64,000 bases of DNA, taken from assembly GCF_003018255.1 (NCBI RefSeq), contig NZ_CP027440.1; one strand, 5' to 3'. A model generated the notes under the pieces. That model ran no database searches. It was given only the letters and a program-made list of their open reading frames with translations, and had not been told where the DNA came from. The translations under genes and the position numbers were made by a program. This DNA is from Escherichia coli (GTDB lineage Bacteria; Pseudomonadota; Gammaproteobacteria; Enterobacterales; Enterobacteriaceae). This document shows positions 15,140-57,063 of this stretch, one piece after another (positions within the stretch are counted from its first letter, which is position 1; the number at the start of each line of letters is the position of its first letter).

Positions 15140-15931
15140 ATGCCTGAAGGCCCGGAGATCCGCCGTGCAGCGGATAACCTGGAGGCGGCGATCAAAGGCA
15201 AACCACTAACTGATGTCTGGTTTGCCTTCCCGCAGTTAAAACCTTATCAATCACAACTTATCGGTCAACACGTTACCCATGTGGAAACGCGTGGTAAGGC
15301 GTTGTTAACTCATTTTTCCAACGACTTAACGCTCTACAGCCATAATCAGCTTTACGGCGTCTGGCGCGTGGTTGATACCGGCGAAGAGCCGCAGACTACG
15401 CGAGTATTGCGGGTAAAACTGCAAACGGTTGACAAAACCATTCTGCTTTATAGCGCCTCGGATATTGAGATGTTGACGCCGGAACAACTGATCACGCATC
15501 CGTTTTTACAACGAGTCGGCCCCGATGTGCTGGATCCGAATCTGACGCCGGAGGTGGTAAAGGAACGGTTATTGTCGCCGCGCTTTCGTAACCGTCAGTT
15601 TGCTGGATTACTGCTCGATCAGGCGTTTCTGGCTGGGCTTGGCAATTATTTGCGGGTGGAGATCCTCTGGCAGGTTGGGTTGACTGGAAATCATAAAGCG
15701 AAAGATCTCAGTGCGGCGCAACTGGATGCACTCGCACACGCGTTACTGGATATTCCTCGATTTTCCTACGCTACGCGGGGGCAGGTGGATGAGAATAAGC
15801 ATCATGGGGCGCTGTTTCGCTTTAAGGTTTTTCATCGTGATGGCGAACTGTGCGAACGCTGTGGCGGCATCATTGAGAAAACCACGCTGTCATCTCGCCC
15901 GTTTTACTGGTGCCCTGGCTGTCAGCACTAG
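15140..15931 (+). CDS. nei: Endonuclease VIII (263 aa)
   Basis: [21 protein letters not shown]... with C-terminal zinc finger [25 protein letters not shown]. Confidence 0.95.
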
Positions 15932-16974: not shown

Positions 16975-17126
16975 CCTTCGTTCCCTCATTATTTTTTCTT
17001 TGGTGTATCGATACAGCATAAAGAAAGCCGGGCCAGGAAAAAATAACAGCAATCAAGGAAAAGGGGAAAATCAGCAATTTTCTGAAAGAGAGGCCCTTTA
17101 CTAACTGCAAAGGGCATCATGATAAA

Positions 17127-18188
17127 TTAGTTATAGTTAATCTTAAAAAGCACCACTGTATCGAAGGGACCCGCTTCGATGGGGGTGCCGGGAATGGACG
17201 AAAGTTCAGCCGTATAGGTTTTTTCGTAGATCAGCATATCGCTGGTGAAATCAGCATATTCGCTGTATTTGTTGAAAGTATAGGGTGAAGAATTTTCATC
17301 CAGCAAACGTAGCTTCAGTCCATTACCAATCAGCAGTGCTTTATCCTCTTCAATCAATGTTTCTTCGGTATAAAACGAAGAGCTGACCTTAAATCCGTCG
17401 GTGCACTGGTCATTTTGTGATTTTGTCGTCTTAATACTGAATGTTTTCGACATTGTGTGGCGGCGAATATCCAGCAGGTTAAATTTACCAAAATCAATCA
17501 CCTGTGTTTCTGGTGAAATAGAAAAATTGACGCTGCAATCCAGTACACGAATGTTTTCCAGACCAGTAATATGGTATTTCAGGTTTTGGGCGGTAGGGTC
17601 TTCGTTAACGCTACCGGCACCATCAAATTGCACGACGATGTAGTCGCTAAGCGAACTTTGATAATCATGCGGCGGTATTTCGCGAATCTTAACGTATAAC
17701 CGCATACGAGCAAGAAAGGTTCGCGACATGTGAATATTAGCGGGGTCACCCGAGCATATTTTGTTCTGCCAGCCCATCGCGATAATCTGCTCAGGGGTAT
17801 AAATGTTAATGTTCTTACTGTCGATACACTGGTTGGTGTCGATGCGGCTTTTCCCCAGACTGGCATCGTAATCGACACCATTGTATGTCACGCCGAGTTG
17901 ATAATAACGATCCTGTACCCCCGGGTAGGGGTTTACCCATGCGTAGACATGTTCGCTTTCAAAGTTGCCGTTGGTATTGTTGTCACAATAGACGGGAATT
18001 TTAATATCGTCAGATTCCCAGATCTTATCGCCGGGTTTGGCATTACCTGGCACAGCAAAGGGTTGAATCGCTTCCGATTTTTCTACCGTTCCGCCGGAAG
18101 TACCAAAATAGCAGTTCAGCGCTAGCGCAGACTTCAATGGCAGAAATACCAGACAGATGACGAGCAACACTCCCTTGCCAGCACTCAT
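17127..18188 (-). CDS. ybgO: Fimbrial adhesin-like protein (353 aa)
   Basis: Signal peptide [23 protein letters not shown]; last gene of a chaperone-usher operon; start overlaps ybgP stop. Confidence 0.85.
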
Positions 18189-18913
18189 TTCTTCGCCTCC
18201 ACTGCTTGTAAACGGCATTGTCCGCTGCAGTTGAGCGTCGTCATGCGTAACGCGCCGTAATCATCCATATAACCGAGATAAAACTGACTGCCGCTATAAC
18301 TTCCGGTGTTTGTAATTACTGTACTAAAAGGCGCAACCATCACGGTTTTGAAGCCGGGAAGAACGCCTTTTTCATTTCTCCCCAGATAGGCAATGGTCAG
18401 ATAATACGCGGTAGGATTTTTCAGTGTCAGTTGGTTGCCCTGCTGGCTGACCTGTAACTGCAGTTCGACCTTTTCTCCTGCTTTCTTGCGTAATGCAGCC
18501 GGTCGCCAGAATACCTTGATACGACTCTGAATGGCGACTTGCAGAACGGCATGGCCGCTGTTTTTTTCTGGGGAGGGAGGAATTTCACGCATATTGTAGA
18601 AAAATAGCGTTTCGCGATCGCCCGGTAATTTTGTGGTCGAGGCTTGCTTTACTATCCGTACCTGCGTTGTTGCTTTCGGTTCCAGACGTTGTATCGGTGG
18701 CAGGGCAACCAGAAGATCATCGCTTTTCTCCCCTTTTTCATTTTCGAGCCAGGAATAAGCGAGGTAGGGGAGTTTATCGCTACGATTATCCACGCGCAGA
18801 CTGGTAGCTTTATCATTAGCGTTAAACACAATACGAGTGCGATCGGGTTGTAGTGCAGCGTGGCTGCACAGACTGGCAACCAACAACAAAAGGGGTAGTC
18901 CTTTCATAAATGT
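18185..18913 (-). CDS. ybgP: Periplasmic fimbrial chaperone, PapD-like (242 aa)
   Basis: [44 protein letters not shown]... Confidence 0.88.
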
Positions 18914-18930
18914 CATTTTCATTTCCTTAA

Positions 18931-27618: not shown

Positions 27619-27742
27619 CCGTAGGCCTGAGAAGACGCGCAAGCGTCGCATCAGGCAACCAGTGCCGGATGCGGCGTGAACGCCTTATCCGGCCTACAAG
27701 TCATTACCCGTAGGCCTGATAAGCGCAGCGCATCAGGCGTAA
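27619..27742. repeat. Cluster of REP (BIME-type) palindromic elements between sdhB and sucA
   Basis: Three imperfect palindromes of the GCCTGATGCGACGC / GCCGGATGCGGCGTGAACGCCTTATCCGGCCTAC type in alternating orientation. Confidence 0.8.
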
Positions 27743-33211: not shown

Positions 33212-34080
33212 TGTCCATTTTAATTGATAAAAACACCAAGGTTATCTGCCAGGGCTTTACCGGTAGCCAGGGGACTTTCCACTCAGAACAGGCCATTGCA
33301 TACGGCACTAAAATGGTTGGCGGCGTAACCCCAGGTAAAGGCGGCACCACCCACCTCGGCCTGCCGGTGTTCAACACCGTGCGTGAAGCTGTTGCTGCTA
33401 CTGGCGCTACCGCTTCTGTTATCTACGTACCAGCACCGTTCTGCAAAGACTCCATTCTGGAAGCTATTGATGCAGGCATCAAACTAATTATCACCATCAC
33501 TGAAGGCATCCCGACGCTGGATATGCTGACCGTGAAAGTGAAACTGGATGAAGCAGGCGTTCGTATGATCGGCCCGAACTGCCCAGGCGTTATCACTCCG
33601 GGTGAATGCAAAATCGGTATCCAGCCGGGTCACATTCACAAACCGGGTAAAGTGGGTATCGTTTCCCGTTCCGGTACACTGACCTATGAAGCGGTTAAAC
33701 AGACCACGGATTACGGTTTCGGTCAGTCGACCTGTGTCGGTATCGGCGGTGACCCGATCCCTGGCTCTAACTTTATCGACATCCTCGAAATGTTCGAAAA
33801 AGATCCGCAGACCGAAGCGATCGTGATGATCGGTGAGATCGGCGGTAGCGCTGAAGAAGAAGCGGCTGCGTACATCAAAGAGCACGTTACCAAGCCTGTT
33901 GTGGGTTACATCGCTGGTGTGACTGCGCCGAAAGGCAAACGTATGGGCCACGCGGGTGCGATCATTGCCGGTGGGAAAGGGACTGCGGATGAGAAATTCG
34001 CTGCTCTGGAAGCCGCAGGCGTGAAAACCGTTCGCAGCCTGGCGGATATCGGTGAAGCACTGAAAACTGTTCTGAAATAA
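33211..34080 (+). CDS. sucD: Succinyl-CoA synthetase alpha subunit (289 aa)
   Basis: [45 protein letters not shown]... Confidence 0.97.
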
Positions 34081-34180
34081 ATATCTGTAATAAGAAATAG
34101 CCCTCGCCGCTTCCTTCTACAGGAATGGCGAAGGGCTGTCGGTTTCGACATGGTTGGCCATCATATGATGGCCTTTTTTG
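34081..34180 (+). ncRNA. sdhX: 3-prime-UTR-derived small RNA region of sucD (SdhX/RybD-like) with intrinsic terminator
   Basis: About 100 nt after the sucD stop with two hairpins (AGCCCTCGCC...GGCGAAGGGCT and GGCCATCATATGATGGCC) followed by a T run at 34173-34179; ends not determined. Confidence 0.5.
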
Positions 34181-34183
34181 TGC

Positions 34184-34906
34184 TTATCGCGATGATTTTC
34201 GCTGCGCTATCAGGGTAAATTTATAGTCATCGGTATTAAAAGCGTTGCGGCTATATTCAAACACCCGGCCATCAACTAAATATCCACGCGATACTTTTTC
34301 AAGAATCGGCTTAGTCTGGCTGATATTAAGCAGACGGCTCATTTCTTCGGTTGGCATCAGAGGAATGATTTCCTGTTCGCTACGATCGATAACCATTTTC
34401 TTCACTTCTTCAATAAAGTGATATTTCGAATTTTCCATGACCTGCCAGGTGAGATCCGGGAACAACGCAAGCGGCATCCAGGTTTCTTCCAGCGCCATTG
34501 GCTTTTGCTTGCGATAGCGCACGCGCTTCACATGCCACACACGATCCTGCGCGGTGATTTGTAGCTGTTGCTGAAGAAAATCGTCAGCCGGAATCACTTC
34601 GAATATCAGAACTTCACTGTGTGTATCGACGTGACGGTCCGTCAGTTTTTCATCAAAACTGGTTAACTGAAAAATATCGTAATTGACCCGCTCTTCTTTT
34701 ACGTAAGTCCCGCTGCCCTGAATGCTTTCGAGGATCTGCTGTTCAACTAACTGGCGCAAAGCCTGACGCACCGTAACCCGGCTGACGCCAAACTCTGTTT
34801 GTAGCGCTGATTCAGTGGGTAACGCATCGCCAGGTTTAAGCTCGCCACGCGCAATTTGCTCACGAATGCGATCAGCAATCTGTCGGTATAAGGGTTTCCG
34901 TCCCAT
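34184..34906 (-). CDS. mngR: GntR-family transcriptional regulator of the mannosyl-D-glycerate operon (240 aa)
   Basis: N-terminal GntR HTH (MGRKPLYRQIADRIREQIARGELKPGDALPTESALQTEFGVSRVTVRQAL) plus UTRA-type C-terminal domain. Confidence 0.93.
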   Translation of the reverse strand: MGRKPLYRQIADRIREQIARGELKPGDALPTESALQTEFGVSRVTVRQALRQLVEQQILESIQGSGTYVKEERVNYDIFQLTSFDEKLTDRHVDTHSEVLIFEVIPADDFLQQQLQITAQDRVWHVKRVRYRKQKPMALEETWMPLALFPDLTWQVMENSKYHFIEEVKKMVIDRSEQEIIPLMPTEEMSRLLNISQTKPILEKVSRGYLVDGRVFEYSRNAFNTDDYKFTLIAQRKSSR

Positions 34907-35015
34907 GATTTAGCATCTCATTAATACGAATTTAGCCATTATGCCCGATAAATTCATCCTGTAAATAATACAAATACAATACAAATAATTTCAATCAAGT
35001 GAAATTGATCACATA

Positions 35016-36992
35016 ATGGTATTGTTTTATCGGGCACACTGGCGCGACTATAAAAACGATCAAGTGAGGATCATGATGAACCTGACGACTCTGACCCACC
35101 GCGATGCGTTGTGTCTGAATGCGCGCTTTACCAGCCGTGAAGAGGCCATCCACGCGTTGACTCAACGTCTTGCTGCTCTGGGGAAAATTTCCAGTACTGA
35201 GCAATTTCTGAAAGAAGTGTATCGCCGTGAAAGCCTTGGCCCGACCGCCTTAGGTGAAGGGCTGGCTGTGCCGCATGGCAAAACTGCTGCGGTAAAAGAA
35301 GCGGCGTTTGCGGTCGCCACACTCAGCGAGCCGCTTCAGTGGGAAGGCGTGGATGGCCCGGAAGCGGTTGATTTAGTGGTGTTGCTGGCGATTCCCCCCA
35401 ATGAAGCGGGTACTACGCACATGCAACTGCTGACAGCGCTGACCACGCGCCTGGCGGATGATGAGATACGGGCGCGTATACAGTCGGCGACGACGCCTGA
35501 TGAATTGCTCTCGGCGCTGGATGACAAGGGAGGCACGCAACCCTCAGCTTCTTTTTCCAACGCGCCAACTATCGTCTGCGTAACGGCCTGCCCGGCGGGT
35601 ATTGCTCACACCTATATGGCTGCGGAGTATCTGGAAAAAGCCGGACGCAAACTCGGCGTGAATGTCTACGTTGAAAAGCAAGGTGCTAACGGCATTGAAG
35701 GGCGTTTAACGGCAGAGCAACTCAATAGTGCAACCGCCTGTATTTTTGCGGCTGAAGTCGCCATCAAGGAGAGTGAGCGTTTTAACGGCATTCCCGCGCT
35801 TTCTGTGCCTGTTGCCGAGCCGATTCGCCATGCAGAAGCGTTGATCCAACAAGCGCTTAACCTCAAGCGTAGCGATGAGACGCGTACCGTACAGCAAGAT
35901 ACGCAACCGGTGAAAAGCCTCAAAACGGAGCTAAAACAGGCACTGTTGAGCGGGATCTCTTTTGCAGTGCCGTTGATTGTCGCGGGGGGCACGGTGCTGG
36001 CGGTTGCGGTATTACTGTCGCAAATCTTCGGGCTACAAGATTTGTTTAATGAAGAAAACTCCTGGCTGTGGATGTACCGCAAACTGGGCGGAGGGCTGCT
36101 CGGGATTTTGATGGTACCGGTGCTGGCAGCCTACACCGCCTATTCACTGGCTGATAAACCGGCGTTAGCGCCAGGCTTTGCGGCTGGACTTGCCGCCAAC
36201 ATGATCGGTTCCGGGTTTCTCGGTGCTGTCGTTGGCGGATTGATAGCCGGTTATCTGATGCGCTGGGTGAAAAATCACTTGCGTCTTAGCAGTAAATTCA
36301 ATGGATTCCTGACTTTTTATCTCTACCCGGTGCTCGGTACGTTGGGAGCGGGCAGTCTGATGCTGTTTGTGGTGGGGGAACCTGTCGCCTGGATCAATAA
36401 CTCGCTTACCGCCTGGCTGAACGGTCTGTCAGGAAGTAACGCGCTGTTGCTGGGTGCCATTCTCGGTTTTATGTGTTCCTTTGACCTTGGAGGGCCAGTG
36501 AACAAAGCCGCTTATGCATTCTGCCTGGGCGCAATGGCGAACGGCGTTTACGGCCCGTATGCCATTTTCGCCTCCGTCAAAATGGTTTCGGCATTTACCG
36601 TAACCGCTTCCACGATGCTCGCACCGCGCCTGTTTAAAGAGTTTGAAATTGAGACCGGGAAATCCACCTGGCTGTTAGGGCTGGCAGGTATTACCGAAGG
36701 GGCGATCCCGATGGCGATTGAAGATCCGCTGCGGGTTATTGGTTCGTTTGTGCTGGGCTCTATGGTAACGGGCGCTATCGTCGGCGCGATGAATATCGGC
36801 CTTTCGACACCCGGTGCCGGCATTTTCTCGCTCTTTTTACTTCATGATAATGGCGCGGGCGGTGTTATGGCGGCAATTGGCTGGTTTGGTGCGGCATTGG
36901 TGGGGGCTGCAATCTCGACTGCAATTCTTCTGATCTGGCGGCGTCACGCGGTTAAGCATGGCAACTATCTGACTGATGGCGTAATGCCATAA
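35016..36992 (+). CDS. mngA: PTS 2-O-alpha-mannosyl-D-glycerate-specific EIIABC component (658 aa)
   Basis: EIIA (PTS-type) N-terminal domain, EIIB, and polytopic EIIC domain; divergent from mngR. Confidence 0.9.
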
Positions 36993-37009
36993 ACAAAAAG
37001 GAAACGACG

Positions 37010-39643
37010 ATGAAAGCGGTATCTCGCGTTCACATCACCCCGCATATGCACTGGGATCGGGAGTGGTATTTCACCACCGAAGAGTCACGCATTCTGCTGG
37101 TCAATAATATGGAAGAGATCCTGTGCCGACTGGAACAGGACAACGAATACAAATATTACGTACTCGACGGGCAAACGGCGATCCTCGAAGATTATTTCGC
37201 GGTGAAACCGGAAAACAAAGACCGTGTGAAGAAACAGGTAGAAGCAGGCAAGTTGATTATCGGCCCCTGGTATACCCAGACCGATACCACGATTGTTTCT
37301 GCGGAATCCATCGTCCGTAATCTGATGTACGGAATGCGTGACTGCCTCACGTTTGGCGAGCCGATGAAAATAGGTTATTTACCAGATTCCTTTGGCATGT
37401 CCGGGCAACTGCCGCATATTTACAATGGATTTGGCATTACCCGCACCATGTTCTGGCGCGGATGTTCTGAGCGCCACGGTACTGATAAAACCGAGTTTTT
37501 GTGGCAAAGCAGTGACGGTAGCGAAGTGACGGCGCAGGTGCTGCCGCTGGGCTACGCCATCGGTAAGTACTTACCTGCCGACGAAGACGGATTACGCAAA
37601 CGCCTCGACAGTTATTTTGATGTGCTGGAAAAAGCGTCAGTAACCAAAGAGATTTTGCTGCCGAATGGTCATGACCAGATGCCATTGCAGCAAAATATCT
37701 TCGAAGTGATGGATAAGCTACGTGAGATCTACCCTCAACGTAAGTTTGTGATGAGCCGCTTTGAAGAGGTATTTGAGAAGATCGAAGCGCAGCGAGATAA
37801 TCTGGCAACCCTGAAAGGGGAATTTATTGATGGCAAATATATGCGCGTGCATCGCACCATCGGTTCTACGCGTATGGATATCAAAATTGCCCACGCGCGT
37901 ATTGAAAATAAGATTGTTAATCTGCTGGAACCGCTGGCAACGCTGGCCTGGACGTTGGGTTTTGAATACCACCACGGCTTGCTGGAGAAATTGTGGAAAG
38001 AAATTTTAAAAAACCACGCCCATGACAGCATCGGCTGCTGCTGTAGTGACAAAGTTCATCGCGAGATTGTCGCCCGTTTCGAACTGGCAGAAGACATGGC
38101 GGATAATCTGCTGCGTTTCTATATGCGTAAAATTGCCGATAACATGCCACAGAGTGATGCCGACAAACTTGTGCTGTTTAACCTGATGCCCTGGCCGCGG
38201 GAAGAAGTGATCAACACCACTGTGCGGCTGCGCGCCAGCCAGTTTAATTTGCGGGACGATCGCGGTCAGCCTGTACCGTATTTTATTCGCCATGCCCGTG
38301 AGATCGATCCTGGCCTAATCGATCGGCAAATCGTTCATTACGGTAATTATGATCCCTTTATGGAGTTTGATATTCAGATCAACCAGATTGTCCCTTCTAT
38401 GGGCTATCGCACGCTTTATATCGAAGCGAATCAGCCTGGCAACGTGATTGCGGCAAAAAGTGACGCTGAAGGGATACTGGAAAATGCTTTCTGGCAAATT
38501 GCGCTCAATGAGGATGGAACGCTACAACTGGTAGATAAAGACAGCGGTGTGCGCTATGACCGGGTGTTGCAAATTGAAGAAAGCTCTGATGATGGTGATG
38601 AATATGACTATTCACCCGCAAAAGAAGAGTGGGTAATTACTTCGGCGAACGCGAAACCGCAATGCGAGATTACTCATGAGGCCTGGCAGAGTAGGGCTGT
38701 TATCCGCTATGACATGGCGGTGCCGCGTAATCTGCATGAACGCAGCGCAAGACAATCCACTGGCAGAGTAGGGGTGGAGTTGGCTGTCACTCTGAGTGAT
38801 AACAGCAGGCGCATTGATGTGGATATCAACCTTGATAACCAGGCTGACGATCATCGCCTTCGCGTCCTGGTCCCTACACCTTTTAACACCGACAGTGTTC
38901 TGGCCGATACCCAGTTTGGTTCGCTAACGCGCCCCGTGAACGACAGTGCAATGAACAACTGGCAGCAAGAAGGCTGGAAAGAAGCGCCGGTTCCGGTATG
39001 GAATATGCTCAACTATGCTGCCTTACAGGAAGGGCGTAACGGTCTGGCTGTCTTTAGCGAAGGGCTACGTGAATATGAAGTCATCGGTGAAGAGAAGAAA
39101 ACCTTTGCCATTACGTTGCTGCGTGGCGTGGGCTTACTGGGGAAAGAAGATCTGCTTTTAAGGCCTGGACGTCCTTCAGGAATAAAAATGCCGGTGCCCG
39201 ATTCACAATTACGTGGCTCCTTTAGCTGCCGTCTGAGCTTATTTAGTTATACAGGTACGCCTTCGACCGCCGGTGTAGCCCAGCAGGCGCGCGCATGGCT
39301 GACGCCAGTACAGTGTTACAACAAAATCCCGTGGGATGCGATGAAGTTAAATAAAGCCGGATTCAATGTGCCGGAAAGCTATAGCTTGCTGAAAATGCCC
39401 CCTGTGGGATGCCTGATTAGCGCTCTTAAAAAAGCGGAAGACCGGCAAGAAGTGGTATTGCGACTGTTTAATCCGGCAGAATCGACAACCTGTGAGGCAA
39501 CTGTCGCGTTCAGTCGTGAGGTGATTTCATGTACGCAAACGATGATGGATGAAAGCATCAGCACAGCGGAAAGAGATAATTTAAAGGAACTGGGGGCATT
39601 TTTACCGGGGCAGTCACGGACATTTAGCTACCGCCTTGGCTGA
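37010..39643 (+). CDS. mngB: Alpha-mannosidase, glycoside hydrolase family 38 (877 aa)
   Basis: [38 protein letters not shown]... GH38 signature. Confidence 0.93.
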
Positions 39644-39681
39644 TTATTGCGCTAAAAGTGTATCTGAGGGGGGCAATAATT

Positions 39682-39712
39682 TCAGGCCATCTTCGGATGG
39701 CCTGAGATTGTT
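39682..39712 (+). terminator. Probable terminator after mngB
   Basis: Hairpin TCAGGCCATC-TTCG-GATGGCCTGA followed by a T-rich stretch. Confidence 0.55.
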
Positions 39713-39787
39713 GATAAACAAGTTTGTTAGCTTACGCAGATACCAGATTTGACCTGCGTGAGAACCGCAGGCCATTTATCATTTCAG

Positions 39788-41185
39788 TTACCCCTTAAAC
39801 GTTAACCACGGTCGAAATCTGACCGCTGGCTGAATTAATCCGGCTTCTTGTTGGGCTTCGATAACCGGACCAATATCTTTATAAGCCGCTGGCGCTTCTT
39901 CAAAACGTCGTTCTTCGCGCAATGTGACGCATTGCCACGGCAGCGTTGACTCTTCAGTCGCGCGTGAGCGCATGGCCTGCCGACGCTGGCTGCGTCCTGC
40001 TCCGTGACTGCATGACCACAGCCACTCCGGGTTGCCGCAACCTACCGCAAGCCACGAATAATCGCCCATTGAACCGGGGATTAACGCCAGATTGCCCACT
40101 CGTGCCGGTGTTGCGCCTTTGCGATGAATATTCATTTCATGCTCGCGAAGGATGATGTTATGTGGCACATCCACCACCAGATGCGAATTGTCCTGATGAA
40201 AGAGATTGGCAAGACATACGCGCACCATTTCGGCAATTGTGACGCGATTTAACCATGCGTAACGCGCCGCCATTCCTATCGCTTGTAGATATTCCTCCGC
40301 CAGTCCGCCTGCCAGACCATATAACCCGCTTTGTGGATGTTTATGTCCGGTGGGCCATTCAGCACGGGCGCGATCCATCCAGCGTCTTCCGACGTAAAAG
40401 CCAACATCTCGCGATCCACTGTGGATCATCACCACAATATCGCCTGTTTTCAGCCCTTGTTGCCAGGCTACATGGCGATCAACCACGCTATCAACGACCT
40501 GAAGTTCAATAAAATGATTACCTGAACCCGGCGTACCCAGACAAGGATCGCGGAGTAATGCGCGGTCCGTTGCCTGCAGGGCGGGTGGGGCATAACGCGA
40601 ATGACTGTTATGCTCGTTAAGCCCAATGCAGCGGTCAATCTCTTGTACCATTCGGGGGATATTCGTGCGTATCCAGAGACCTTCTGATGGCAAGGTCGAC
40701 ACGCAATCTGCCGGTCCGCCATCAAAAAGCGCGGTGAACGCCTGTGCGGATAACGGAACATCGCGCTCATTTTGCAGTAGCACTTGCGTTAACCGCTGAG
40801 CGATGACGTCTTTATGCGCTTCGGCTTGCTCAAGTGTTAATCCGGTCGTCAGCAGCCGCATGCCACAAGAAATATCGGTGCCGATGGCGGCGGGAATGAC
40901 TAAATCCGGCGTTGAGGCCACCACCGCGCCAACGGGGACGCCATTGCCGGGATGAAAATCTGGCGTCGCGCACGTCTGGCGCACATAACCTGGGTGGTCT
41001 GGTAGCTTCACTTCTGCAAAATCAAGCAGTTGTGTTACTGCTTTTTCTTCCAGCGGCAGTTCGTCCGGCAGCAGTACGCGGGCACTGGCACCTGATGGAC
41101 GAGATAATGAAACAATATTGTTGGCGCGGGAAAGTTGGATCCCTTTGCGCAGAAAGGCTTTATCAAGCCTTGAAAGATGATGCAT
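39788..41185 (-). CDS. RtcB-family RNA 3-prime-phosphate ligase paralog (465 aa), orphan
   Basis: Conserved RtcB motifs: TPDFHPGNG, IPAAIGTDISCGMRLL, GTPGSGNHFIELQ, MIHSGSRDVG, IPGSMG, CSHGAGR, AYKDIGPVIEAQ; N-terminus about 30 aa longer than canonical RtcB; start codon uncertain. Confidence 0.85.
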   Translation of the reverse strand: MHHLSRLDKAFLRKGIQLSRANNIVSLSRPSGASARVLLPDELPLEEKAVTQLLDFAEVKLPDHPGYVRQTCATPDFHPGNGVPVGAVVASTPDLVIPAAIGTDISCGMRLLTTGLTLEQAEAHKDVIAQRLTQVLLQNERDVPLSAQAFTALFDGGPADCVSTLPSEGLWIRTNIPRMVQEIDRCIGLNEHNSHSRYAPPALQATDRALLRDPCLGTPGSGNHFIELQVVDSVVDRHVAWQQGLKTGDIVVMIHSGSRDVGFYVGRRWMDRARAEWPTGHKHPQSGLYGLAGGLAEEYLQAIGMAARYAWLNRVTIAEMVRVCLANLFHQDNSHLVVDVPHNIILREHEMNIHRKGATPARVGNLALIPGSMGDYSWLAVGCGNPEWLWSCSHGAGRSQRRQAMRSRATEESTLPWQCVTLREERRFEEAPAAYKDIGPVIEAQQEAGLIQPAVRFRPWLTFKG

Positions 41186-41490
41186 AACGCTGTCCTGAAA
41201 TATAGACGTTAAACAACCCCCTGTATGGCGAGGGTAATTTTGTCTTTCCGGTCAGCAGCCAGCAAAAGGGAAAGAAAACGCGCGTAGTGTATGTGGCGAT
41301 AGCAAGTGTTACAAGTGGTAAATCTGGCTTATTGTTAAAGAGGAATTATCTTTTGTGAAGTCTTTTAAGGCCATGACTCATTCAATTTAACCGGACATAG
41401 ATAATATATAACATAGGGTATCTAAATTTATCATTGTATACTTGTCATAATTCAAGTTGCATGTGCTGCATCGATGTTCGCTCACCCAGG

Positions 41491-42060
41491 TCACTTACTT
41501 ATGTAAGCTTCTGGAAATTCATTATTTGTTCCCTTCCTGCAACTTGACTTATTTAGAGTATATTCATGTATACACATCGAGATTTCAGCCAGCAGACGCG
41601 CATCTGGCGTGCCGTGGCGGATCTGTAGCGGTTTTTGCAGAGTTTCGGTGAGGCGACGGCAAGCTGCAACGCCGTGGTTAACGACCGGTAAACCGTTCAG
41701 TTTAGAGGTTCCGGCTTCGATGGATTTTTTAATCCCTACAGCCGCTTCTTCGTACCGATTCAGACGGGTATATGCATCGATGGTGCTCGGCAGCAGATCG
41801 CACTCTTCTTGTAGTGTTTTCAGTAGTTCGATGTGTTCGTCCATCAGCGCCACACCTGCGCGCGGTTGGCTAAGGGTTTTACCTTCCTTGTCTGCTTTCA
41901 ACAGCGCAAGAGAGAAGCGTTTATGCTCAGGAATGGTTTGTTGGTATTTAACGCCATCTTCAAAGTTTTCAACATCCTTGCCGGTTTCCCAGGTTTTCAG
42001 TACCTGTTGCCGCTCGGTCATGAATTCGTCATGGGTTAATTTCTTATTTCGAAGTTCCAT
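41491..42060 (-). pseudogene. glmE: Glutamate mutase E (epsilon) subunit, truncated: 189 codons versus about 480 in intact homologs
   Basis: [33 protein letters not shown]...[20 protein letters not shown]...[15 protein letters not shown]...[13 protein letters not shown] resembles the GlmE N-terminus; similarity ends near codon 165, then 24 unrelated codons and stop. Confidence 0.75.
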
Positions 42061-42078
42061 TGATTGCAGCCTTAATTG

Positions 42079-43467
42079 TTATAGGGTTAAGCATTGAATA
42101 CTGGTGCGCGCGGCGGCCAGCGGATCGACTCTGGCGACGTTTGCCAGCAGTGGTAATAGCCCCCGGGAATCGCGGTAATATTCAAATTCGGTCGGTAAGA
42201 GAATGCGTTTACCGTCGTCGTTTAACTCGCGGTATTTCAACCAGTGATGCATATCGAACTGACTGGCACGCGAGAGCCATCCGCCGGATCCGACGACTTT
42301 ACGCACGGTTGTCAGGTCACGTCCCATCTGTAAATCGACATTGCCGACGCAGGTGCAGACCTCTTTTTTGGTGCCCGCATGTCTTTCGGTGGCATAACCC
42401 ACACACAGTCCGGCCAGGACGGTATCGAAATATTTTTCTTCTGCATTCGCGGGTAAGTAGTCGGGATGAGCGACTAGATGACGGAGGTAATGATAAAAAG
42501 CGTCCAGCTGTGCGGGTTGCTGAGCAAAATTCACATTGACTAACTCTTTCGCACTTTCACCAACCACCATTGCCGAGACGCGCATTCCCAGATCTCCTTC
42601 CACCGTCCGTTTTACGAAGGGTTCCGGTACGCCATGTAAAACAGTGTCGGGCGAGAGCGTGTTGGCACTGGCGGAATAGACATCGGTGGTTGCGCCACCC
42701 ATGTCGATCAGCATGAACTCTTTCCAGCTGTGATCGACATTACTGATTGCCTTAACCAGTTCAAAGACTGTCCACGGTGTCGGCATTGGTTCTTCGCCTG
42801 TTTTATCAACAACGACATCCAGCCCTTTCCCTTTAACGATGCGTTTAAGGAATATGTCGCAGATAGCCTGGCGTGCAGCTAAAGGGTTCGGATGGTCAAG
42901 ATCGGGCAGAACGTTGTCGACGATGGTCAGGTCTTTATGCCCGAGGATCTCCTGCACCTCGTCCTGAATATCCCGGTTTCCGGCATAAATAATGGCGCAG
43001 TCGAGTTTGGATTCTGCCAACACACGGGCGTTATTCAGTCCGTAGCTTTCTTCTCCGCCATCGGTGCCGCCGGTGAACAAGAGAATATCGGGCTGCGTTT
43101 CTTCCAGTGCCTGGATATCACGGCGGTTCAGCTTGTAGGCGTAAGATTGCGCAATTTTAGCACCCGCAGAGTGAGCGGTTACTTTCGCGGTTTCCAGGGT
43201 GATAGAAGGCACCAATCCCATTGCGGCAACCGCCAGCCCACCTTTGGCAGAGGAGGAATACTTCAATGCAACCTCACCACTGTTTAACAGGGGGAGGGCA
43301 TCATCTACGTTTAACACCTGGTCCAGGCTGGAGAAAAACCCCTTCGCCAGATGATGGGTGGTGGTTGGGGTCAGTACGTGGTTAACCAACGTTAACGCGT
43401 CCCCCTCCCGGGCGAAGAGGGCTGCTTTGGTCCACGTCGATCCAATATCGACAGAGACGATTTGCAT
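42079..43467 (-). CDS. glmL: Glutamate mutase accessory protein GlmL/MutL-like (462 aa)
   Basis: [18 protein letters not shown]... actin/Hsp70-like ATPase fold; translationally coupled to glmS (TGATG overlap); placed between glmS and glmE as in clostridial operons. Confidence 0.75.
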   Translation of the reverse strand: MQIVSVDIGSTWTKAALFAREGDALTLVNHVLTPTTTHHLAKGFFSSLDQVLNVDDALPLLNSGEVALKYSSSAKGGLAVAAMGLVPSITLETAKVTAHSAGAKIAQSYAYKLNRRDIQALEETQPDILLFTGGTDGGEESYGLNNARVLAESKLDCAIIYAGNRDIQDEVQEILGHKDLTIVDNVLPDLDHPNPLAARQAICDIFLKRIVKGKGLDVVVDKTGEEPMPTPWTVFELVKAISNVDHSWKEFMLIDMGGATTDVYSASANTLSPDTVLHGVPEPFVKRTVEGDLGMRVSAMVVGESAKELVNVNFAQQPAQLDAFYHYLRHLVAHPDYLPANAEEKYFDTVLAGLCVGYATERHAGTKKEVCTCVGNVDLQMGRDLTTVRKVVGSGGWLSRASQFDMHHWLKYRELNDDGKRILLPTEFEYYRDSRGLLPLLANVARVDPLAAARTSIQCLTL

Positions 43468-43916
43468 CAGATTGCCTCTTCAAGAATACGAGTATCAACG
43501 TCATGACGTTGGTTGATATCGTGGGCCATCAGCTGACAAACATCTTCTAAGTCATGACTTGGGGCAAAGACGCGATCAAATCCCATCTCTTTGAATTTGG
43601 TTTCCACGTCAGCGAAGTCATGTTTTCCGACCACCAGGTTACCGCCCACATAGAGCAGGATGTCCCCCAGTCCACGCTCGATGCAGCGTTCGCGCATGCC
43701 CAGACAGTCGATATCGCCATGCCCATAGATAGAGGAGACGACAATCGCGTCAGCACCAGTTTCAATGGCAGCATCAATATATTCGTCCTGGCTGACCATT
43801 ACGCCCAGATTAATAACTCTGAAGTCATGGTTGCTAAAAACGCGGTCCAGAACTTTATTGCCTACTGCATGGCAGTCCGCGCCAATAACGCCAATCACAA
43901 GTGTTGCTTTCTTCAT
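43467..43916 (-). CDS. glmS: Glutamate mutase S (sigma) subunit, B12-binding (149 aa)
   Basis: [24 protein letters not shown]... with the DxHxxG cobalamin-binding motif; AGGA RBS 7 nt upstream of this ATG (the listed ORF extends 21 codons further upstream). Confidence 0.8.
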
Positions 43917-44463
43917 GGGTAATCCTTTGTAAGACAGAGAGTAAAATAAGTTACACACGTCGTATTTATGGCCGCTCATAACGGCACAGGTTTAATATCA
44001 CAGGAGTGTCTTTATCTGACCGTAATGTTGCAATTGATCTATTTTCAAAATGTCTTTCGGGAAATGATTGTTTAAAGTGTGTTTTCAAATTCTCATGTTA
44101 ATTCAGTGTGTTATGTCAACTAATGTCATGAATGTTAAATTTTTAAAATTAACTTGATTTGATGTATTGAGATAATTGTGATCAACTTCTAATTTGCATT
44201 TTAGTGATATGGGGTTAGCCATGAGTAAATGCATTTCATAAAAGTTAAGTCGAATTTCACTGCAATTCATCTCTGCTTAATGTAAAAATAATGTTGAAAA
44301 TAACAAATAATTAATGATTCATGCGAATTATGACCTTTGTTAGCTCTTTTGATTTTTCGTAAAAAAGAAAAGTACATGAAGGTGCTACCAGTACGAGAAA
44401 CGTTAATCAAAAGTTTTATTACGTCTGGCAATAACGCAGGCCATTTTTCGCGACAGGAGGGAT

Positions 44464-44886
44464 TTAATCAGTATAATCCTCATACAATAGGTCAGGATTT
44501 ACAGAACCGTTAACGGGGTTTTGGTGTTGAAATTTAGAAATGGTGGAGTCAATCAATGAAGACAGTATCGAAAAAATGACTGTGTCAGAATTAATTTCAA
44601 TTAATCCTTCTCGTTGTTGACCAAAAAAGATATTTATCTTGATTTCATTTGTACTACGGAAATCAATATGTAGTAATTTTTGATCGCTGAGATTTTCTGT
44701 TTCATAAATGTTTTTGGCGATAGTCGGATGTATTGATGCCAGACATCTGCTCAGATAAGCCAGATCCTTTAGGGAACACCCCGCTGAGTAGAGGATGTCA
44801 GAGAATTTTTGTGTGTCAACTGTTGGCTCTGAAGCGTATGTTGCATTGACTGGAAGGGTGTTGAAGGAGATTTGAGATGGGATCAT
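44464..44886 (-). CDS. Hypothetical protein (140 aa), small and acidic, low GC
   Basis: Intact ORF MIPSQISFNTLPVNATYASEPTVDTQKF...; no recognisable motif; sits in an AT-rich segment of the island. Confidence 0.5.
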   Translation of the reverse strand: MIPSQISFNTLPVNATYASEPTVDTQKFSDILYSAGCSLKDLAYLSRCLASIHPTIAKNIYETENLSDQKLLHIDFRSTNEIKINIFFGQQREGLIEINSDTVIFSILSSLIDSTISKFQHQNPVNGSVNPDLLYEDYTD

Positions 44887-44966
44887 TATTTAAATCTTTC
44901 CGTGAGTAATAAAAATTAATCCCCGGGCATTGTTTAGTAATATTTGCCACAGGGGATATATAAAAA

Positions 44967-45911
44967 TTAAAGTATTTGATTGGCATCGGTTAACTGATCA
45001 ATAACCAGTGCCAGATTGGTAAACATTTTGAAAAAGCGATACTGGCTCGGAATATCTCTTTCAAAGACGAAACATTCAATGTCATTGTTTGAAAAATAAA
45101 GGACTAGTGATGCTGATTCGTCAGGAAAAATATGGAAATATATCTGGTTACCAGAAGGAGGATAGTCCAGAAGAAGGGTATCTTTGCCCGTCACATACCT
45201 GTTGTGGTCGTGGATGCTGCGCTCACACTTCATCAGAGGTGTCATGATACTCATGTATTCATCTGATGTTAATATATTAAAATCACCATCCATTTTAAAG
45301 AAACGATAAAGTAACAGTACATCCTCTTGCGTAACCGGTTCGTTTGTTTTTAGAGGGAAATAAGTGGGAACCAGAAGATGAGGTTCTAATCTATTTTGTT
45401 GAGCGCTATAACTAAATTTGAACATAAATTCCGGATCGCTCATCAATTGAGCGACATAATTATGCCTGGCTTCAAAAATTTTAACTTTTATCAGGTTAAA
45501 TAAGTCTGTTTCGTCATCCTGTATTAAAAGACATTGGCCATAGCAGCCAGGCTTTTTTTCATTATAAGCAGAAACGGTTATTCTGTCAGGAGTGTCAACG
45601 TTATATCCAAAAGCCAGATAGTGACCTTCCTCATCGAGATTTGTTTCCAGGTTATTTAAATTCATCACATGAAGTGTTTGCAATGCTGATTCAATGAGCT
45701 GTTGACTCTCTGAGGTAAATGTTTCGCGCTGCGTTGTATAAAGTGTATCGATTCCAACGACTATCCGATGTGGGTCAAGGATGGCGGCAATCATCTTTAT
45801 TACCTGCACAGTCATGGGTGATGTCATTGATTCTTTATCTGTTTTTAGAGGATCATTAGATGGCCAACCTGAGAAGCGATTGACAGCAGAACTGATAATA
45901 TCAGGACTCAT
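44967..45911 (-). CDS. Hypothetical protein (314 aa), low GC
   Basis: Intact ORF MSPDIISSAVNRFSGWPSNDPLKTDKESM...; GAGG RBS 8 nt upstream of ATG; no signal peptide or TM helix evident; no family recognised. Confidence 0.6.
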   Translation of the reverse strand: MSPDIISSAVNRFSGWPSNDPLKTDKESMTSPMTVQVIKMIAAILDPHRIVVGIDTLYTTQRETFTSESQQLIESALQTLHVMNLNNLETNLDEEGHYLAFGYNVDTPDRITVSAYNEKKPGCYGQCLLIQDDETDLFNLIKVKIFEARHNYVAQLMSDPEFMFKFSYSAQQNRLEPHLLVPTYFPLKTNEPVTQEDVLLLYRFFKMDGDFNILTSDEYMSIMTPLMKCERSIHDHNRYVTGKDTLLLDYPPSGNQIYFHIFPDESASLVLYFSNNDIECFVFERDIPSQYRFFKMFTNLALVIDQLTDANQIL

Positions 45912-46365
45912 AGCAGCAACCTCATTGTAATCAAGCGAGGCGCTGAGCGTACTCGGCTATAGAAAAACTAACTTGCAAAAATCGCTCATTTTTCATTTAT
46001 CAGGCGAAAGTGGTCTCTGTTCACTCAGAAACAATCACTCCCGCTAAGTCATACCTGTTTCATCGATACATTTAAGTGATTATTACTAATGAAACAATAA
46101 CATAATGGGCTTACGGCCGGTGCTCATAAACGCAACAATCAATTAACTTTGATAAAAATATGTTATGTAAAATAGCAACAAATTGGCTAATCTAATCAAT
46201 TGGTATTATAAAAAGTGGATAAGGCGGTTCTGTTAAATAAAACACTGGTTTTTTATCTATACCTTTTCATTGTAATAATTGTGTTGCATAAATATTTCAC
46301 AATAAATTAACAATAAAATCACCAATGATCTATGGTTTATACATAATTAACATATTTGGTTGATT

Positions 46366-46379
46366 TTGATATAAATCAA
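46366..46379. promoter_or_regulatory. FNR/CRP-type palindromic site in the cydA upstream region
   Basis: Perfect TTGAT-ATAA-ATCAA (TTGAT N4 ATCAA) about 340 bp upstream of cydA in an AT-rich leader. Confidence 0.55.
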
Positions 46380-46716
46380 TTTTTAATTCTTGAAAAAAAT
46401 CTGCAAAACACGATAAATTGTCGTAGATCAAATTGGTGAGATCGTGACAATTTCGCTATAAATTGATCACTGTCGAAAAATGCAAATTTGCTCAATAAAA
46501 ACCTGTTTATTGTAAGGATTTTGCGGCGTAATATAATTACGGGATCAATTTGGTTTATTCATTAACACATTTGTAACTTTTTTATCATTGTCTTTTCCTC
46601 TTTTGATGAAATGGCAACGATAGAGGCGAGCAAATAATTTTGTATTGGGGCATGCGTGTGACCCTTTCTAACGGGGTTCACTCTCGGAGTCTTCATGCGA
46701 TGAGCAAGGAGTCATG

Positions 46717-48285
46717 ATGTTAGATATAGTCGAACTGTCGCGCTTACAGTTTGCCTTGACCGCGATGTACCACTTCCTTTTTGTGCCACTGACGCTCGGT
46801 ATGGCGTTCCTGCTGGCCATTATGGAAACGGTCTACGTCCTTTCCGGCAAACAGATTTATAAAGATATGACCAAGTTCTGGGGCAAGTTGTTTGGTATCA
46901 ACTTCGCTCTGGGTGTGGCTACCGGTCTGACCATGGAGTTCCAGTTCGGGACTAACTGGTCTTACTATTCCCACTATGTAGGGGATATCTTCGGTGCGCC
47001 GCTGGCAATCGAAGGTCTGATGGCCTTCTTCCTCGAATCCACCTTTGTAGGTCTGTTCTTCTTCGGTTGGGATCGTCTGGGTAAAGTTCAGCATATGTGT
47101 GTCACCTGGCTGGTGGCGCTCGGTTCAAACCTGTCCGCACTGTGGATTCTGGTTGCGAACGGCTGGATGCAAAACCCAATCGCGTCCGATTTCAACTTTG
47201 AAACTATGCGTATGGAGATGGTGAGCTTCTCCGAGCTGGTGCTTAACCCGGTTGCTCAGGTGAAATTCGTTCACACTGTAGCGTCTGGTTATGTGACTGG
47301 CGCGATGTTCATCCTCGGTATCAGCGCATGGTATATGCTGAAAGGTCGTGACTTCGCCTTCGCTAAACGCTCTTTTGCTATCGCTGCCAGCTTCGGTATG
47401 GCTGCCGTTCTGTCTGTTATTGTTCTGGGTGATGAATCTGGTTACGAAATGGGCGACGTGCAGAAAACCAAACTGGCTGCTATTGAAGCCGAGTGGGAAA
47501 CGCAACCTGCGCCTGCTGCCTTTACTCTGTTCGGCATTCCTGATCAGGAAGAGGAGACGAACAAATTTGCGATCCAGATCCCTTACGCGCTGGGCATCAT
47601 TGCAACGCGTTCCGTGGATACTCCAGTTATCGGCCTGAAAGAACTGATGGTGCAGCATGAAGAACGCATTCGTAACGGGATGAAGGCGTACTCTCTGCTC
47701 GAGCAACTGCGTTCTGGTTCTACCGACCAGGCGGTTCGTGACCAGTTCAATAGCATGAAGAAAGACCTCGGTTACGGTCTGCTGCTGAAACGCTATACGC
47801 CAAACGTGGCTGATGCGACTGAAGCGCAGATTCAACAGGCAACCAAAGACTCCATTCCGCGTGTAGCGCCGCTGTACTTCGCGTTCCGTATCATGGTGGC
47901 GTGTGGCTTCCTGCTGCTGGCAATCATCGCGCTCTCTTTCTGGAGTGTCATCCGCAACCGCATTGGCGAGAAAAAATGGCTGCTGCGCGCCGCGCTGTAC
48001 GGTATTCCGCTGCCGTGGATTGCTGTAGAAGCGGGCTGGTTCGTGGCTGAATATGGTCGCCAACCGTGGGCTATCGGTGAAGTGCTGCCGACAGCTGTGG
48101 CGAACTCGTCACTGACCGCAGGCGATCTCATCTTCTCAATGGTGCTGATTTGCGGCCTGTATACCCTGTTCCTGGTGGCAGAATTGTTCTTAATGTTCAA
48201 ATTTGCACGCCTCGGCCCAAGCAGCCTGAAAACCGGTCGCTATCACTTTGAGCAGTCTTCCACGACTACTCAGCCGGCACGCTAA
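46717..48285 (+). CDS. cydA: Cytochrome bd-I ubiquinol oxidase subunit I (522 aa)
   Basis: [41 protein letters not shown]... Confidence 0.97.
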
Positions 48286-48300
48286 GACAGGAGTCGTCAA

Positions 48301-54301: not shown

Positions 54302-54847
<546 letters not shown>

Positions 54848-54856
54848 GAGAATTGC

Positions 54857-55648
54857 ATGAGCAGTAACTTCAGACATCAACTATTGAGTCTGTCGTTACT
54901 GGTTGGTATAGCGGCCCCCTGGGCCGCTTTTGCTCAGGCACCAATCAGTAGTGTCGGCTCAGGCTCGGTCGAAGACCGCGTCACTCAACTTGAGCGTATT
55001 TCAAATGCTCACAGCCAGCTTTTAACCCAACTCCAGCAACAACTCTCTGATAATCAATCCGATATTGATTCCCTGCGCGGTCAGATTCAGGAAAATCAGT
55101 ATCAACTGAATCAGGTCGTGGAGCGGCAAAAGCAGATCCTGTTGCAGATCGATAGCCTCAGCAGCGGTGGTGCAGCGGCGCAATCAACCAGCGGTGATCA
55201 AAGCGGTGCGGCGGCATCAACGACGCCGACAGCTGATGCTGGTACTGCGAATGCTGGCGCGCCGGTGAAAAGCGGCGATGCAAACACGGATTACAATGCA
55301 GCAATTGCGCTGGTGCAGGATAAATCCCGCCAGGATGAAGCAATAGTGGCATTTCAGAATTTCATCAAAAATTACCCTGATTCAACTTACCTGCCAAACG
55401 CCAATTATTGGCTGGGTCAGTTAAACTACAACAAGGGTAAAAAAGATGATGCGGCGTATTATTTTGCTTCGGTAGTGAAAAACTATCCGAAGTCACCGAA
55501 GGCTGCAGATGCGATGTTTAAAGTCGGCGTCATCATGCAGGACAAAGGTGACACCGCAAAAGCGAAAGCCGTATACCAGCAGGTTATCAGTAAATACCCT
55601 GGTACTGATGGCGCTAAACAGGCGCAAAAACGTCTGAACGCGATGTAA
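54857..55648 (+). CDS. cpoB: Cell division coordinator CpoB (YbgF), TPR protein (263 aa)
   Basis: MSSNFRHQLLSLSLLVGIAAPWAAFAQ signal peptide, coiled coil, TPR repeats. Confidence 0.95.
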   Translation: MSSNFRHQLLSLSLLVGIAAPWAAFAQAPISSVGSGSVEDRVTQLERISNAHSQLLTQLQQQLSDNQSDIDSLRGQIQENQYQLNQVVERQKQILLQIDSLSSGGAAAQSTSGDQSGAAASTTPTADAGTANAGAPVKSGDANTDYNAAIALVQDKSRQDEAIVAFQNFIKNYPDSTYLPNANYWLGQLNYNKGKKDDAAYYFASVVKNYPKSPKAADAMFKVGVIMQDKGDTAKAKAVYQQVISKYPGTDGAKQAQKRLNAM

Positions 55649-55812: not shown

Positions 55813-55888
55813 GGGTCGTTAGCTCAGTTGGTAGAGCAGTTGACTTTTAATCAATTGGTCGCAGGTTCGAATCCTGCACGACCCACCA
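55813..55888 (+). tRNA. lysT: tRNA-Lys (anticodon UUU)
   Basis: GGGTCGTTAGCTCAGTTGGTAGAGCAGTTGACTTTTAATCAATTGGTCGCAGGTTCGAATCCTGCACGACCCACCA. Confidence 0.95.
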
Positions 55889-56023
55889 ATCGCTAAGGTG
55901 GAAGCGGTAGTAAAACGTGAAGGATAACGTTGCGTCAGCAACGGCCCGAAGGGCGAGACGAAGTCGAGTCATCCTGCACGACCCACCACTAACCTAGTTA
56001 GTTGTAGTATCCAGCGTAGTATC

Positions 56024-56099
56024 GGGTGATTAGCTCAGCTGGGAGAGCACCTCCCTTACAAGGAGGGGGTCGGCGGTTCGATCCCGTCATCACCCACCA
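56024..56099 (+). tRNA. valT: tRNA-Val (anticodon UAC)
   Basis: GGGTGATTAGCTCAGCTGGGAGAGCACCTCCCTTACAAGGAGGGGGTCGGCGGTTCGATCCCGTCATCACCCACCA. Confidence 0.95.
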
Positions 56100-56101
56100 C
56101 C

Positions 56102-56177
56102 GGGTCGTTAGCTCAGTTGGTAGAGCAGTTGACTTTTAATCAATTGGTCGCAGGTTCGAATCCTGCACGACCCACCA
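56102..56177 (+). tRNA. lysW: tRNA-Lys (UUU)
   Basis: Identical to the lysT sequence. Confidence 0.95.
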
Positions 56178-56228
56178 CTAATTACGGTGGGTTCGGTGGA
56201 AGTAGTTTGTAGTATTCAGCGCAGTATC

Positions 56229-56304
56229 GGGTGATTAGCTCAGCTGGGAGAGCACCTCCCTTACAAGGAGGGGGTCGGCGGTTCGATCCCGTCATCACCC
56301 ACCA
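56229..56304 (+). tRNA. valZ: tRNA-Val (UAC)
   Basis: Identical to the valT sequence. Confidence 0.95.
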
Positions 56305-56307
56305 CTC

Positions 56308-56383
56308 GGGTCGTTAGCTCAGTTGGTAGAGCAGTTGACTTTTAATCAATTGGTCGCAGGTTCGAATCCTGCACGACCCACCA
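56308..56383 (+). tRNA. lysY: tRNA-Lys (UUU)
   Basis: Identical to the lysT sequence. Confidence 0.95.
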
Positions 56384-56529
56384 GTTTTAACATCAAACTC
56401 AGATGTTAAGCGTGAAGGATAACGTTGCGCCAGCAACGGCCCGTAGGGCGAGCGAAGCGAGTCATCCTGCACGACCCACCAATTTTAAAGATTGGTTCCG
56501 AGTAGAAATCTTTCAGGTAACACCCGTAT

Positions 56530-56605
56530 GGGTCGTTAGCTCAGTTGGTAGAGCAGTTGACTTTTAATCAATTGGTCGCAGGTTCGAATCCTGCACGACC
56601 CACCA
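56530..56605 (+). tRNA. lysZ: tRNA-Lys (UUU)
   Basis: Identical to the lysT sequence. Confidence 0.95.
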
Positions 56606-56638
56606 TCCTGAATGATTAAAGCAGCATAATCCCGCAAG

Positions 56639-56714
56639 GGGTCGTTAGCTCAGTTGGTAGAGCAGTTGACTTTTAATCAATTGGTCGCAGGTTCGAATCC
56701 TGCACGACCCACCA
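56639..56714 (+). tRNA. lysQ: tRNA-Lys (UUU)
   Basis: Identical to the lysT sequence. Confidence 0.95.
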
Positions 56715-57063
56715 ATGTAAAAAAGCGCCCTAAAGGCGCTTTTTTGCTATCTGCGATACTCAAAGATTCGAACCTGCAGCAGGTTCGAGTTGAGCGCAGC
56801 GAAACAACGGAGCCGCTCGCGGCGACGGCCCGTAGGGCGAGCGAAGCGAGTTATCCTGCACGACCCACCAATGTAAAAAAGCGCCCTAAAGGCGCTTTTT
56901 TGCTATCTGCGATACTCAAAGATTCGAACCTGCAGCAGGTTCGAGTTGAGCGCAGCGAAATAACGGAGCCGCTCGCGGCGACGGCCCGTAGGGCGAGCGA
57001 AGCGAGTCATCCTGCACGACCCACCAATGTAAAAAAGCGCCCTAAAGGCGCTTTTTTGCTATT
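56715..57063 (+). repeat. Tandem direct repeat, 156-bp period, about 2.2 copies; each unit carries a terminator hairpin and a tRNA-Lys 3-prime-end fragment
   Basis: Units 56715-56870 and 56871-57026 differ at about 3 positions; a partial third copy (terminator part) follows at 57027-57063; each unit ends ...ATCCTGCACGACCCACCA. Confidence 0.9.
56719..56747 (+). terminator. Rho-independent terminator after lysQ (repeated at about 56875 and 57031)
   Basis: AAAAAAGCGCCC-TAAA-GGCGCTTTTTTG hairpin with T run. Confidence 0.85.

Follow-up and report, generated by a model that had tools for sequence, protein, structure and literature searches.

A glmE-truncated remnant of the methylaspartate-pathway island in Escherichia coli, probably left by a single 8,843-bp deletion

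Introduction

The methylaspartate-pathway island of Escherichia coli O157:H7 spans ECs_0755-ECs_0764 and comprises glmS, glmL, glmE, mal, a DUF1446 gene, a DUF4387 gene, a gltP-like gene, fumD, cobA/cobO, and a LysR-type regulator (LTTR) gene (Kronen and Berg, 2015, PMC4682846). FumD is a mesaconase, and the cluster is found in 26.5% of E. coli. No condition with expression of the cluster was found in O157:H7, and the strain did not grow on glutamate (PMC4682846). A natural partial cluster has been described in Clostridium kluyveri, whose rudimentary glutamate fermentation cluster keeps a single mutase subunit (PMC4682846). Solved structures of the GlmE and GlmS subunits are available for Clostridium cochlearium (1CB7, 1CCW, 1I9C, and 6H9E).

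The locus described here lies in a 64,000-nt stretch of E. coli DNA (contig NZ_CP027440.1, assembly GCF_003018255.1), hereafter called the window. It shares the sucD-cydA neighbourhood of the island of O157:H7 Sakai, with 98-99% nucleotide identity over the 2.3 kb that the window retains and with the same two hypothetical genes between glmS and cydA. Compared with Sakai, the window lacks seven genes along with two thirds of glmE at its 3' end, and it has mngRAB and rtcB, both of which are missing from Sakai. Strains of the EE72d type are collinear with the window on both sides of its junction, and their architecture, mngRAB-rtcB-LTTR-cobO-fumD-...-glmE-glmL-glmS, is probably the ancestral one. 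The window GlmS has the same DxHxxG base-off/His-on motif as its C. cochlearium counterpart; in contrast, the glmE product of the window leaves the GlmE sequence at the equivalent of residue 163 and is without most of the barrel. The C. kluyveri cluster, although likewise partial, belongs to another organism, retains other genes, and is of independent origin.

In this study, we describe the locus as the remnant of an enterobacterial methylaspartate-pathway island left by a single 8,843-bp deletion, a reading to which we assign a probability of about 0.93. The intact island is already known (Kronen and Berg, 2015, PMC4682846) and the truncated glmE is already a pseudogene in RefSeq; our literature search found no description of this particular deletion or pseudogene.

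Materials and methods

Window positions 37000-48300 were compared with E. coli EE72d (NZ_CP065136.1) by BLAST. The lost genes were listed from the EE72d annotation (methylaspartate ammonia-lyase, AtuA-family protein, DUF4387 protein, dicarboxylate/amino acid symporter, class I fumarate hydratase, cobO, and LysR). Haplotypes of the remnant were compared in a panel of 12 strains, ten of them intact.

Results

Organization of the locus

Positions 39600-44200 of the window are 100% identical to E. coli strain JNE23-011 (NZ_AP045067.1). The gene order is sucD, mngR, mngA, and mngB on the plus strand, then rtcB, the glmE open reading frame (ORF), glmL, glmS, and two hypothetical genes on the minus strand, and then cydA on the plus strand. 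The features are as follows.

39788..41185, minus strand: RtcB-family gene on the left flank, 465 aa; Pfam PF01139 at residues 63-465, E 7e-95
41186..41572: retained rtcB upstream region, 387 nt, about 43% GC; 98.9% identical to EE72d and others through 41572
41491-42060, minus strand: glmE fusion ORF, 189 codons, consisting of 162 native codons and 27 codons of former intergenic DNA
41491..41574, minus strand: alien tail of the fusion ORF, 27 codons and a stop, made of filler and rtcB upstream intergenic DNA
41573..41574: deletion junction, CA, present in neither EE72d flank (GTATA-CA-CATCGAG)
41575..42060, minus strand: native glmE 5' fragment, codons 1-162 of 481; collinear with EE72d, Sakai, and eight other intact strains up to 41575
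42079..43467, minus strand: glmL, accessory (reactivase/chaperone-type) protein, intact, 462 aa
43467..43916, minus strand: glmS, methylaspartate (glutamate) mutase subunit S, intact, 149 aa (RefSeq WP_000710390.1)
43917..44463, minus strand: AT-rich intergenic region (about 31-36% GC by composition) upstream of glmS
44464-44886 and 44967-45911, minus strand: two low-GC hypothetical genes between glmS and cydA

The genes stand in the order S-L-E', with glmL between glmS and the glmE remnant. GlmS scores 253 bits against NCBIfam NF002612 (cutoff 110) and is 98% identical to EE72d GlmS over 149 aa. GlmL scores 509 bits against the equivalog NF040745 (cutoff 475). A first-pass annotation, made from the sequence alone, had taken both genes as intact, with a preserved cobalamin-binding motif in glmS and translational coupling to glmL. 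These observations are confirmed: the DxHxxG motif is present as D14-C-H-A-V-G19 (nt 43860-43877), and the glmL start overlaps the glmS stop in the sequence TGATG.

The RtcB-family protein scores under the NCBIfam equivalog cutoffs, and its RefSeq name is 'RtcB family protein'. Pfam returned no significant match for the 314-aa hypothetical protein, and the PADLOC defence-system models matched neither RtcB nor the two hypothetical proteins. The region 43917-44463 is presumed to be the site of the operon promoter. An Rfam scan of 27.7-54.7 kb, which covers the region upstream of glmS, found no cobalamin riboswitch and no other RNA element, and promoter and terminator scans of 39600-46800 gave nothing above the shuffled expectation.

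Deletion and junction

The comparison with EE72d yielded two collinear blocks. Window positions 37000-41572 correspond to EE72d L5rc 64-4636 with 97.6% identity, and positions 41575-48300 correspond to L5rc 13480-20204 with 98.8% identity. Between the two blocks, EE72d holds 8,843 bp that are absent from the window. The lost DNA contains the 3' part of glmE (codons 163-481) and seven whole genes, namely mal, AtuA/DUF1446, DUF4387, the symporter gene, fumD, cobO, and the LysR gene. It also contains 202 nt of the originally 589-nt rtcB-LysR intergenic region, of which the 387 nt next to rtcB are kept. The locus had been described earlier as a decayed operon. That it is a remnant is confirmed, but the EE72d comparison points to one deletion of 8,843 bp rather than to gradual decay.

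A deletion breakpoint had been proposed near 41565. A junction is indeed present, and alignment with intact strains places it at exactly 41573-41574. The filler amounts to 1-2 nt, as its A equals the GGACATCG allele of some intact strains. The stretch 41186-41565, whose homologs were in question, is the rtcB upstream intergenic DNA of EE72d and about 148 other genomes. These genomes share the EE72d order, and their rtcB upstream region matches through 41572; rtcB and the retained upstream region together are covered to at least 80% in 153 genomes.

Neither an insertion sequence (IS) element nor microhomology was found at the breakpoints. A mobile element or repeat as the cause of the deletion was thus rejected, and the bare 1-2-nt filler indicates a one-off deletion by illegitimate recombination.

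The glmE remnant

The full-length E. coli GlmE has 481 aa. Against the GlmE model (480 positions), the product of the window matches at positions 1-162 only and scores 254 bits, below the cutoff of 390. In each of the five complete genomes with the deletion, this 486-nt stretch is annotated by RefSeq (PGAP) as an incomplete pseudogene. It had been noted from the sequence that the ORF resembles GlmE for about 165 codons and stops at 189 where about 480 are expected; the ORF of 189 codons and the expected length agree with our data, while the native part is exactly 162 codons.

The DNA that encodes the tail is intergenic in EE72d, where it lies between rtcB and the LysR gene. The first-pass annotation had considered that the 189-aa product might be a naturally short form of GlmE. 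This is refuted by the origin of the 27-codon tail, which is rtcB upstream DNA that does not code for protein in about 148 other genomes. The annotation had also considered a frameshift with the remainder of GlmE encoded elsewhere; tblastn found no continuation of GlmE in a shifted frame or at any other place in the 64-kb window. When the ten island proteins were searched by tblastn against all 64 kb of the window, the only matches were GlmS, GlmL, GlmE residues 1-163, and the flanking RtcB, which served as a control. MAL, FumD, the cobO adenosyltransferase, the transporter, and the LysR regulator had no match there. The earlier statement that no methylaspartase or mesaconase gene follows is therefore correct, and both genes lie inside the deleted 8,843 bp.

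Consequence for the enzyme

The alignment of E. coli GlmE (481 aa) with the epsilon subunit of C. cochlearium, for which structures are solved (1CB7/1CCW/1I9C and 6H9E; E 1e-189), covers both proteins from end to end. The end of the GlmE fragment aligns with clostridial residue 163, 8 residues before Glu171, which we take to be the active-site glutamate of clostridial GlmE. Roughly two thirds of the catalytic subunit, a TIM barrel, are thus absent from the fragment, among them the Glu171 position. Since these parts are missing, the E2S2 holoenzyme is predicted not to form in carriers, and glutamate mutase activity would be lost. The proposal that the catalytic subunit is inactivated is supported by the alignment, in which only 162 of 481 codons are left and the fragment ends before the Glu171 equivalent.

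The mal region is matched by 1,126 of the 5,426 complete E. coli genomes and the junction query by 1,131. The difference of 5 is consistent, if indirectly, with the absence of a second copy of mal from the five carriers.

Distribution of the deletion allele

The island is carried by about 1,130 of 5,426 complete E. coli genomes. The retained island segment (41575-44200) is 98.0-98.8% identical to more than 1,100 E. coli genomes, and the site is between sucD and cydA. The junction is spanned in five of the 5,426 genomes, in each case with an identical GTATACACATCGAG join and a remnant of 486 nt. The carriers are JNE23-011 and JNE112863 (human, Japan), DETEC-S792 (human, China), A25 (monkey, Mexico), and DCE7 (pig, China). 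The filler is identical in these five genomes, and glmL and glmS are intact in all of them. The exact 189-aa product is encoded on 771 contigs of public assemblies (E. coli KTE75 among them), and the assembly collection indexes it in 1,018 blocks; the context was the same in 24 of 24 contigs examined. The allele is fixed in a well-sampled lineage or lineages, and the loss is lineage-specific, as had been suspected, with an identical junction in all five complete genomes.

An artefact of sequencing or assembly can be dismissed as the source of the truncation. The same junction was recovered in the independent assemblies of five complete genomes, which come from Japan, China, and Mexico, and it is found in assemblies from NCBI, ENA, JGI, and Logan.

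The carriers fall into sub-lineages. Of about 11,600 positions, 166 distinguish the JNE type from the A25/DCE7 type, and the differences are clustered like recombination patches. Independent recurrence of the deletion was considered and rejected, as both breakpoints and the untemplated CA filler are identical in all carriers and a 360-nt zone around the junction is free of SNPs between the carrier sub-lineages.

Origin of the locus

The ancestor very probably had the arrangement sucD-mngRAB-rtcB-LysR...glmS-hyp-hyp-cydA, as in EE72d. Its intact island ran glmS-glmL-glmE-mal-AtuA/DUF1446-DUF4387-symporter-fumD-cobO, with the LysR gene at the far end in the opposite orientation. A single event of illegitimate recombination very probably then removed the DNA from 387 nt upstream of rtcB to glmE codon 163. 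As a consequence, every downstream pathway gene and the cluster regulator are missing.

The same arrangement might instead have arisen from a Sakai-type island, which has neither mngRAB nor rtcB, if an incoming mngRAB-rtcB segment took the place of part of it through a homologous crossover near sucD and an illegitimate crossover inside glmE. The interval between sucD and cydA is a mosaic hot spot, and at least four configurations of it were observed, namely those of Sakai, EE72d, LD67-1 (rtcB and a hut operon), and the window, and the patchy clustering of SNPs between carriers is in line with such an exchange. However, the left-hand DNA that was kept spans 387 nt of the rtcB-LysR region, and this region borders the island in exactly the same way in some 148 genomes of the EE72d type. 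Because the retained DNA matches the EE72d-type architecture, a one-step deletion is more parsimonious, and we regard replacement as highly improbable. Replacement and deletion lead to the same end product and to the same functional consequence.

Variation in the remnant

Between the two sub-lineages, 30 of the 2,342 nt of the remnant differ. Synonymous and non-synonymous differences between them number 6 and 0 in the 162-codon glmE fragment, 4 and 1 in glmS, and 11 and 8 in glmL. The A25 haplotype is 9 nt from that of the intact strain e1-39 and 30 nt from that of the window. In the 12-strain panel, four changes are private to the window haplotype, two of them synonymous and two non-synonymous (GlmL Y108S and C267S), and two are private to the A25 haplotype. 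Low dN/dS was rejected as a sign of selection on the remnant, because nearly all differences recur as polymorphisms among the intact strains of the 12-strain panel. Such standing polymorphism, exchanged with intact operons, is therefore uninformative on selection acting on the remnant itself.

glmS and glmL are intact in five of five complete carriers and in most public assemblies examined. In the carrier assembly L022, an IS transposase gene lies in the 5' end of glmL, which indicates that further decay is tolerated.

These data bear on the possibility that the remnant is functional. GlmS, possibly together with GlmL, might serve in cobalamin binding, or the glmS promoter might drive read-through into rtcB, and selection would then keep the glmS-glmL-glmE' unit. 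Few non-synonymous differences separate the sub-lineages in glmS, glmL, and the 162-codon fragment. After the deletion, 305 nt separate the glmE' stop from the RtcB-family gene downstream; all four genes share the same strand, and no terminator-like site lies between the glmE' stop and rtcB. The allele is also common, given the contigs counted above. If a functional role were real, fusion of the glmS-glmL-glmE' unit to rtcB would rewire the expression of a stand-alone RtcB-family RNA ligase; alternatively, GlmS and GlmL would be under selection as a cobalamin-binding/handling pair in a widespread E. coli lineage.

Several observations speak against such a role. Nearly all of the variation is shared with intact strains, and thus reflects selection in intact operons followed by transfer through recombination, and the changes private to the window haplotype are evenly divided between synonymous and non-synonymous. 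glmL carries an IS insertion in one carrier, and the LysR regulator of the cluster is deleted. Moreover, intact islands had no detectable expression in the conditions tested (PMC4682846). The functional readings have no positive support, and we consider them very unlikely. Intact glmS and glmL are compatible with a retained function, yet they are no more than a recent deletion would give; in our view, both genes are still intact because too little time has passed since the deletion. glmS and glmL are thus most likely functionless passengers. This agrees with the first-pass annotation, which had called the B12-binding and chaperone genes intact but probably functionless, and it is consistent with the disrupted glmL of L022.

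Discussion

We regard the locus as an ordinary scar of gene loss in an accessory island that is already published. The locus had been interpreted as a lineage-specific loss of a glutamate fermentation capability. The genes are lost, but even in intact strains they represent merely genetic potential (PMC4682846): since neither expression of the cluster nor growth on glutamate was seen in O157:H7, the lost 'capability' is not a demonstrated phenotype.

The GTATACACATCGAG junction can be used as a PCR or k-mer marker of the lineage. In metabolic reconstruction, strains with the deletion allele should be scored as lacking glutamate mutase, despite the intact glmS and glmL annotation. Exact breakpoints are now documented for a lineage-marking 8.8-kb deletion in an accessory island, which has little import beyond bookkeeping. 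The deletion is one more example to suggest that the island is dispensable in E. coli, and this fits the published lack of expression of the intact O157:H7 islands.

Mosaic structure of the sucD-cydA interval

The interval between sucD and cydA (window about 33600-46700; retrieved loci L002, L003, and L004) is a mosaic hot spot in E. coli, in which at least four architectures were found, as exemplified by three island-bearing strains and the window.

Architectures of the sucD-cydA interval
Sakai: methylaspartate island only
EE72d: mngRAB, rtcB, and island
LD67-1: rtcB, hut operon, and island
Window: mngRAB, rtcB, and island remnant

The rtcB component is a stand-alone gene.

39788-41185, (-), RtcB-family gene, 465 aa (Pfam RtcB domain, residues 63-465)

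The protein scored under every NCBIfam equivalog cutoff, PADLOC returned no match, and no archease or prfH-like partner was visible adjoining the gene. Several hundred E. coli genomes carry this gene, and its neighbourhood takes at least three forms: beside mngB, beside sucD with the hut operon (LD67-1), and as arranged in the window.

Hypothetical genes and RNA elements

Two hypothetical genes of low GC content (about 33-40%) lie between glmS and cydA.

44464-44886, (-), hypothetical gene, 140 aa
44967-45911, (-), hypothetical gene, 314 aa

Neither was matched by Pfam, NCBIfam, or PADLOC. Both travel with the island: Sakai has them as ECs_0766 and ECs_0767, and they also occur in EE72d and in every carrier of the deletion junction. 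In DETEC-S792, a carrier from China, the 140-aa gene contains a frameshift. Non-synonymous differences are numerous in the 314-aa gene (8 against 2 synonymous in comparison with A25; 22 against 11 with Sakai).

Outside the glm remnant, gathering-level Rfam matches were obtained for the following elements.

27624-27694, (-), naRNA4
54748-54886, (+), CpoB/ybgF thermometer
55813-57026, (+), seven-tRNA cluster of the lysT-valT type, including RtT-like repeats

Lesions and SNP clusters in relatives

Additional, independent lesions occur in relatives. The glmL gene of one carrier holds an IS transposase gene with DDE_Tnp_1 and Tnp_DNA_bind domains (L022 2107-3480), and in strain EC21Z-144 (NZ_CP101222.1, hit H8) an IS1 element lies under the glmL-glmE match. 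In one carrier assembly (L021 7418-10050), mngB is broken into two ORFs, and mngA of DCE7 has an internal stop (L007 1-1218).

Between the two deletion-carrying sub-lineages (window versus locus L006), the zone around the junction (41309-41667) is free of SNPs; in contrast, dense SNP clusters occur in mngB and rtcB (37942-38128 and 40671-41027), a sequence pattern typical of what short recombination imports would leave.
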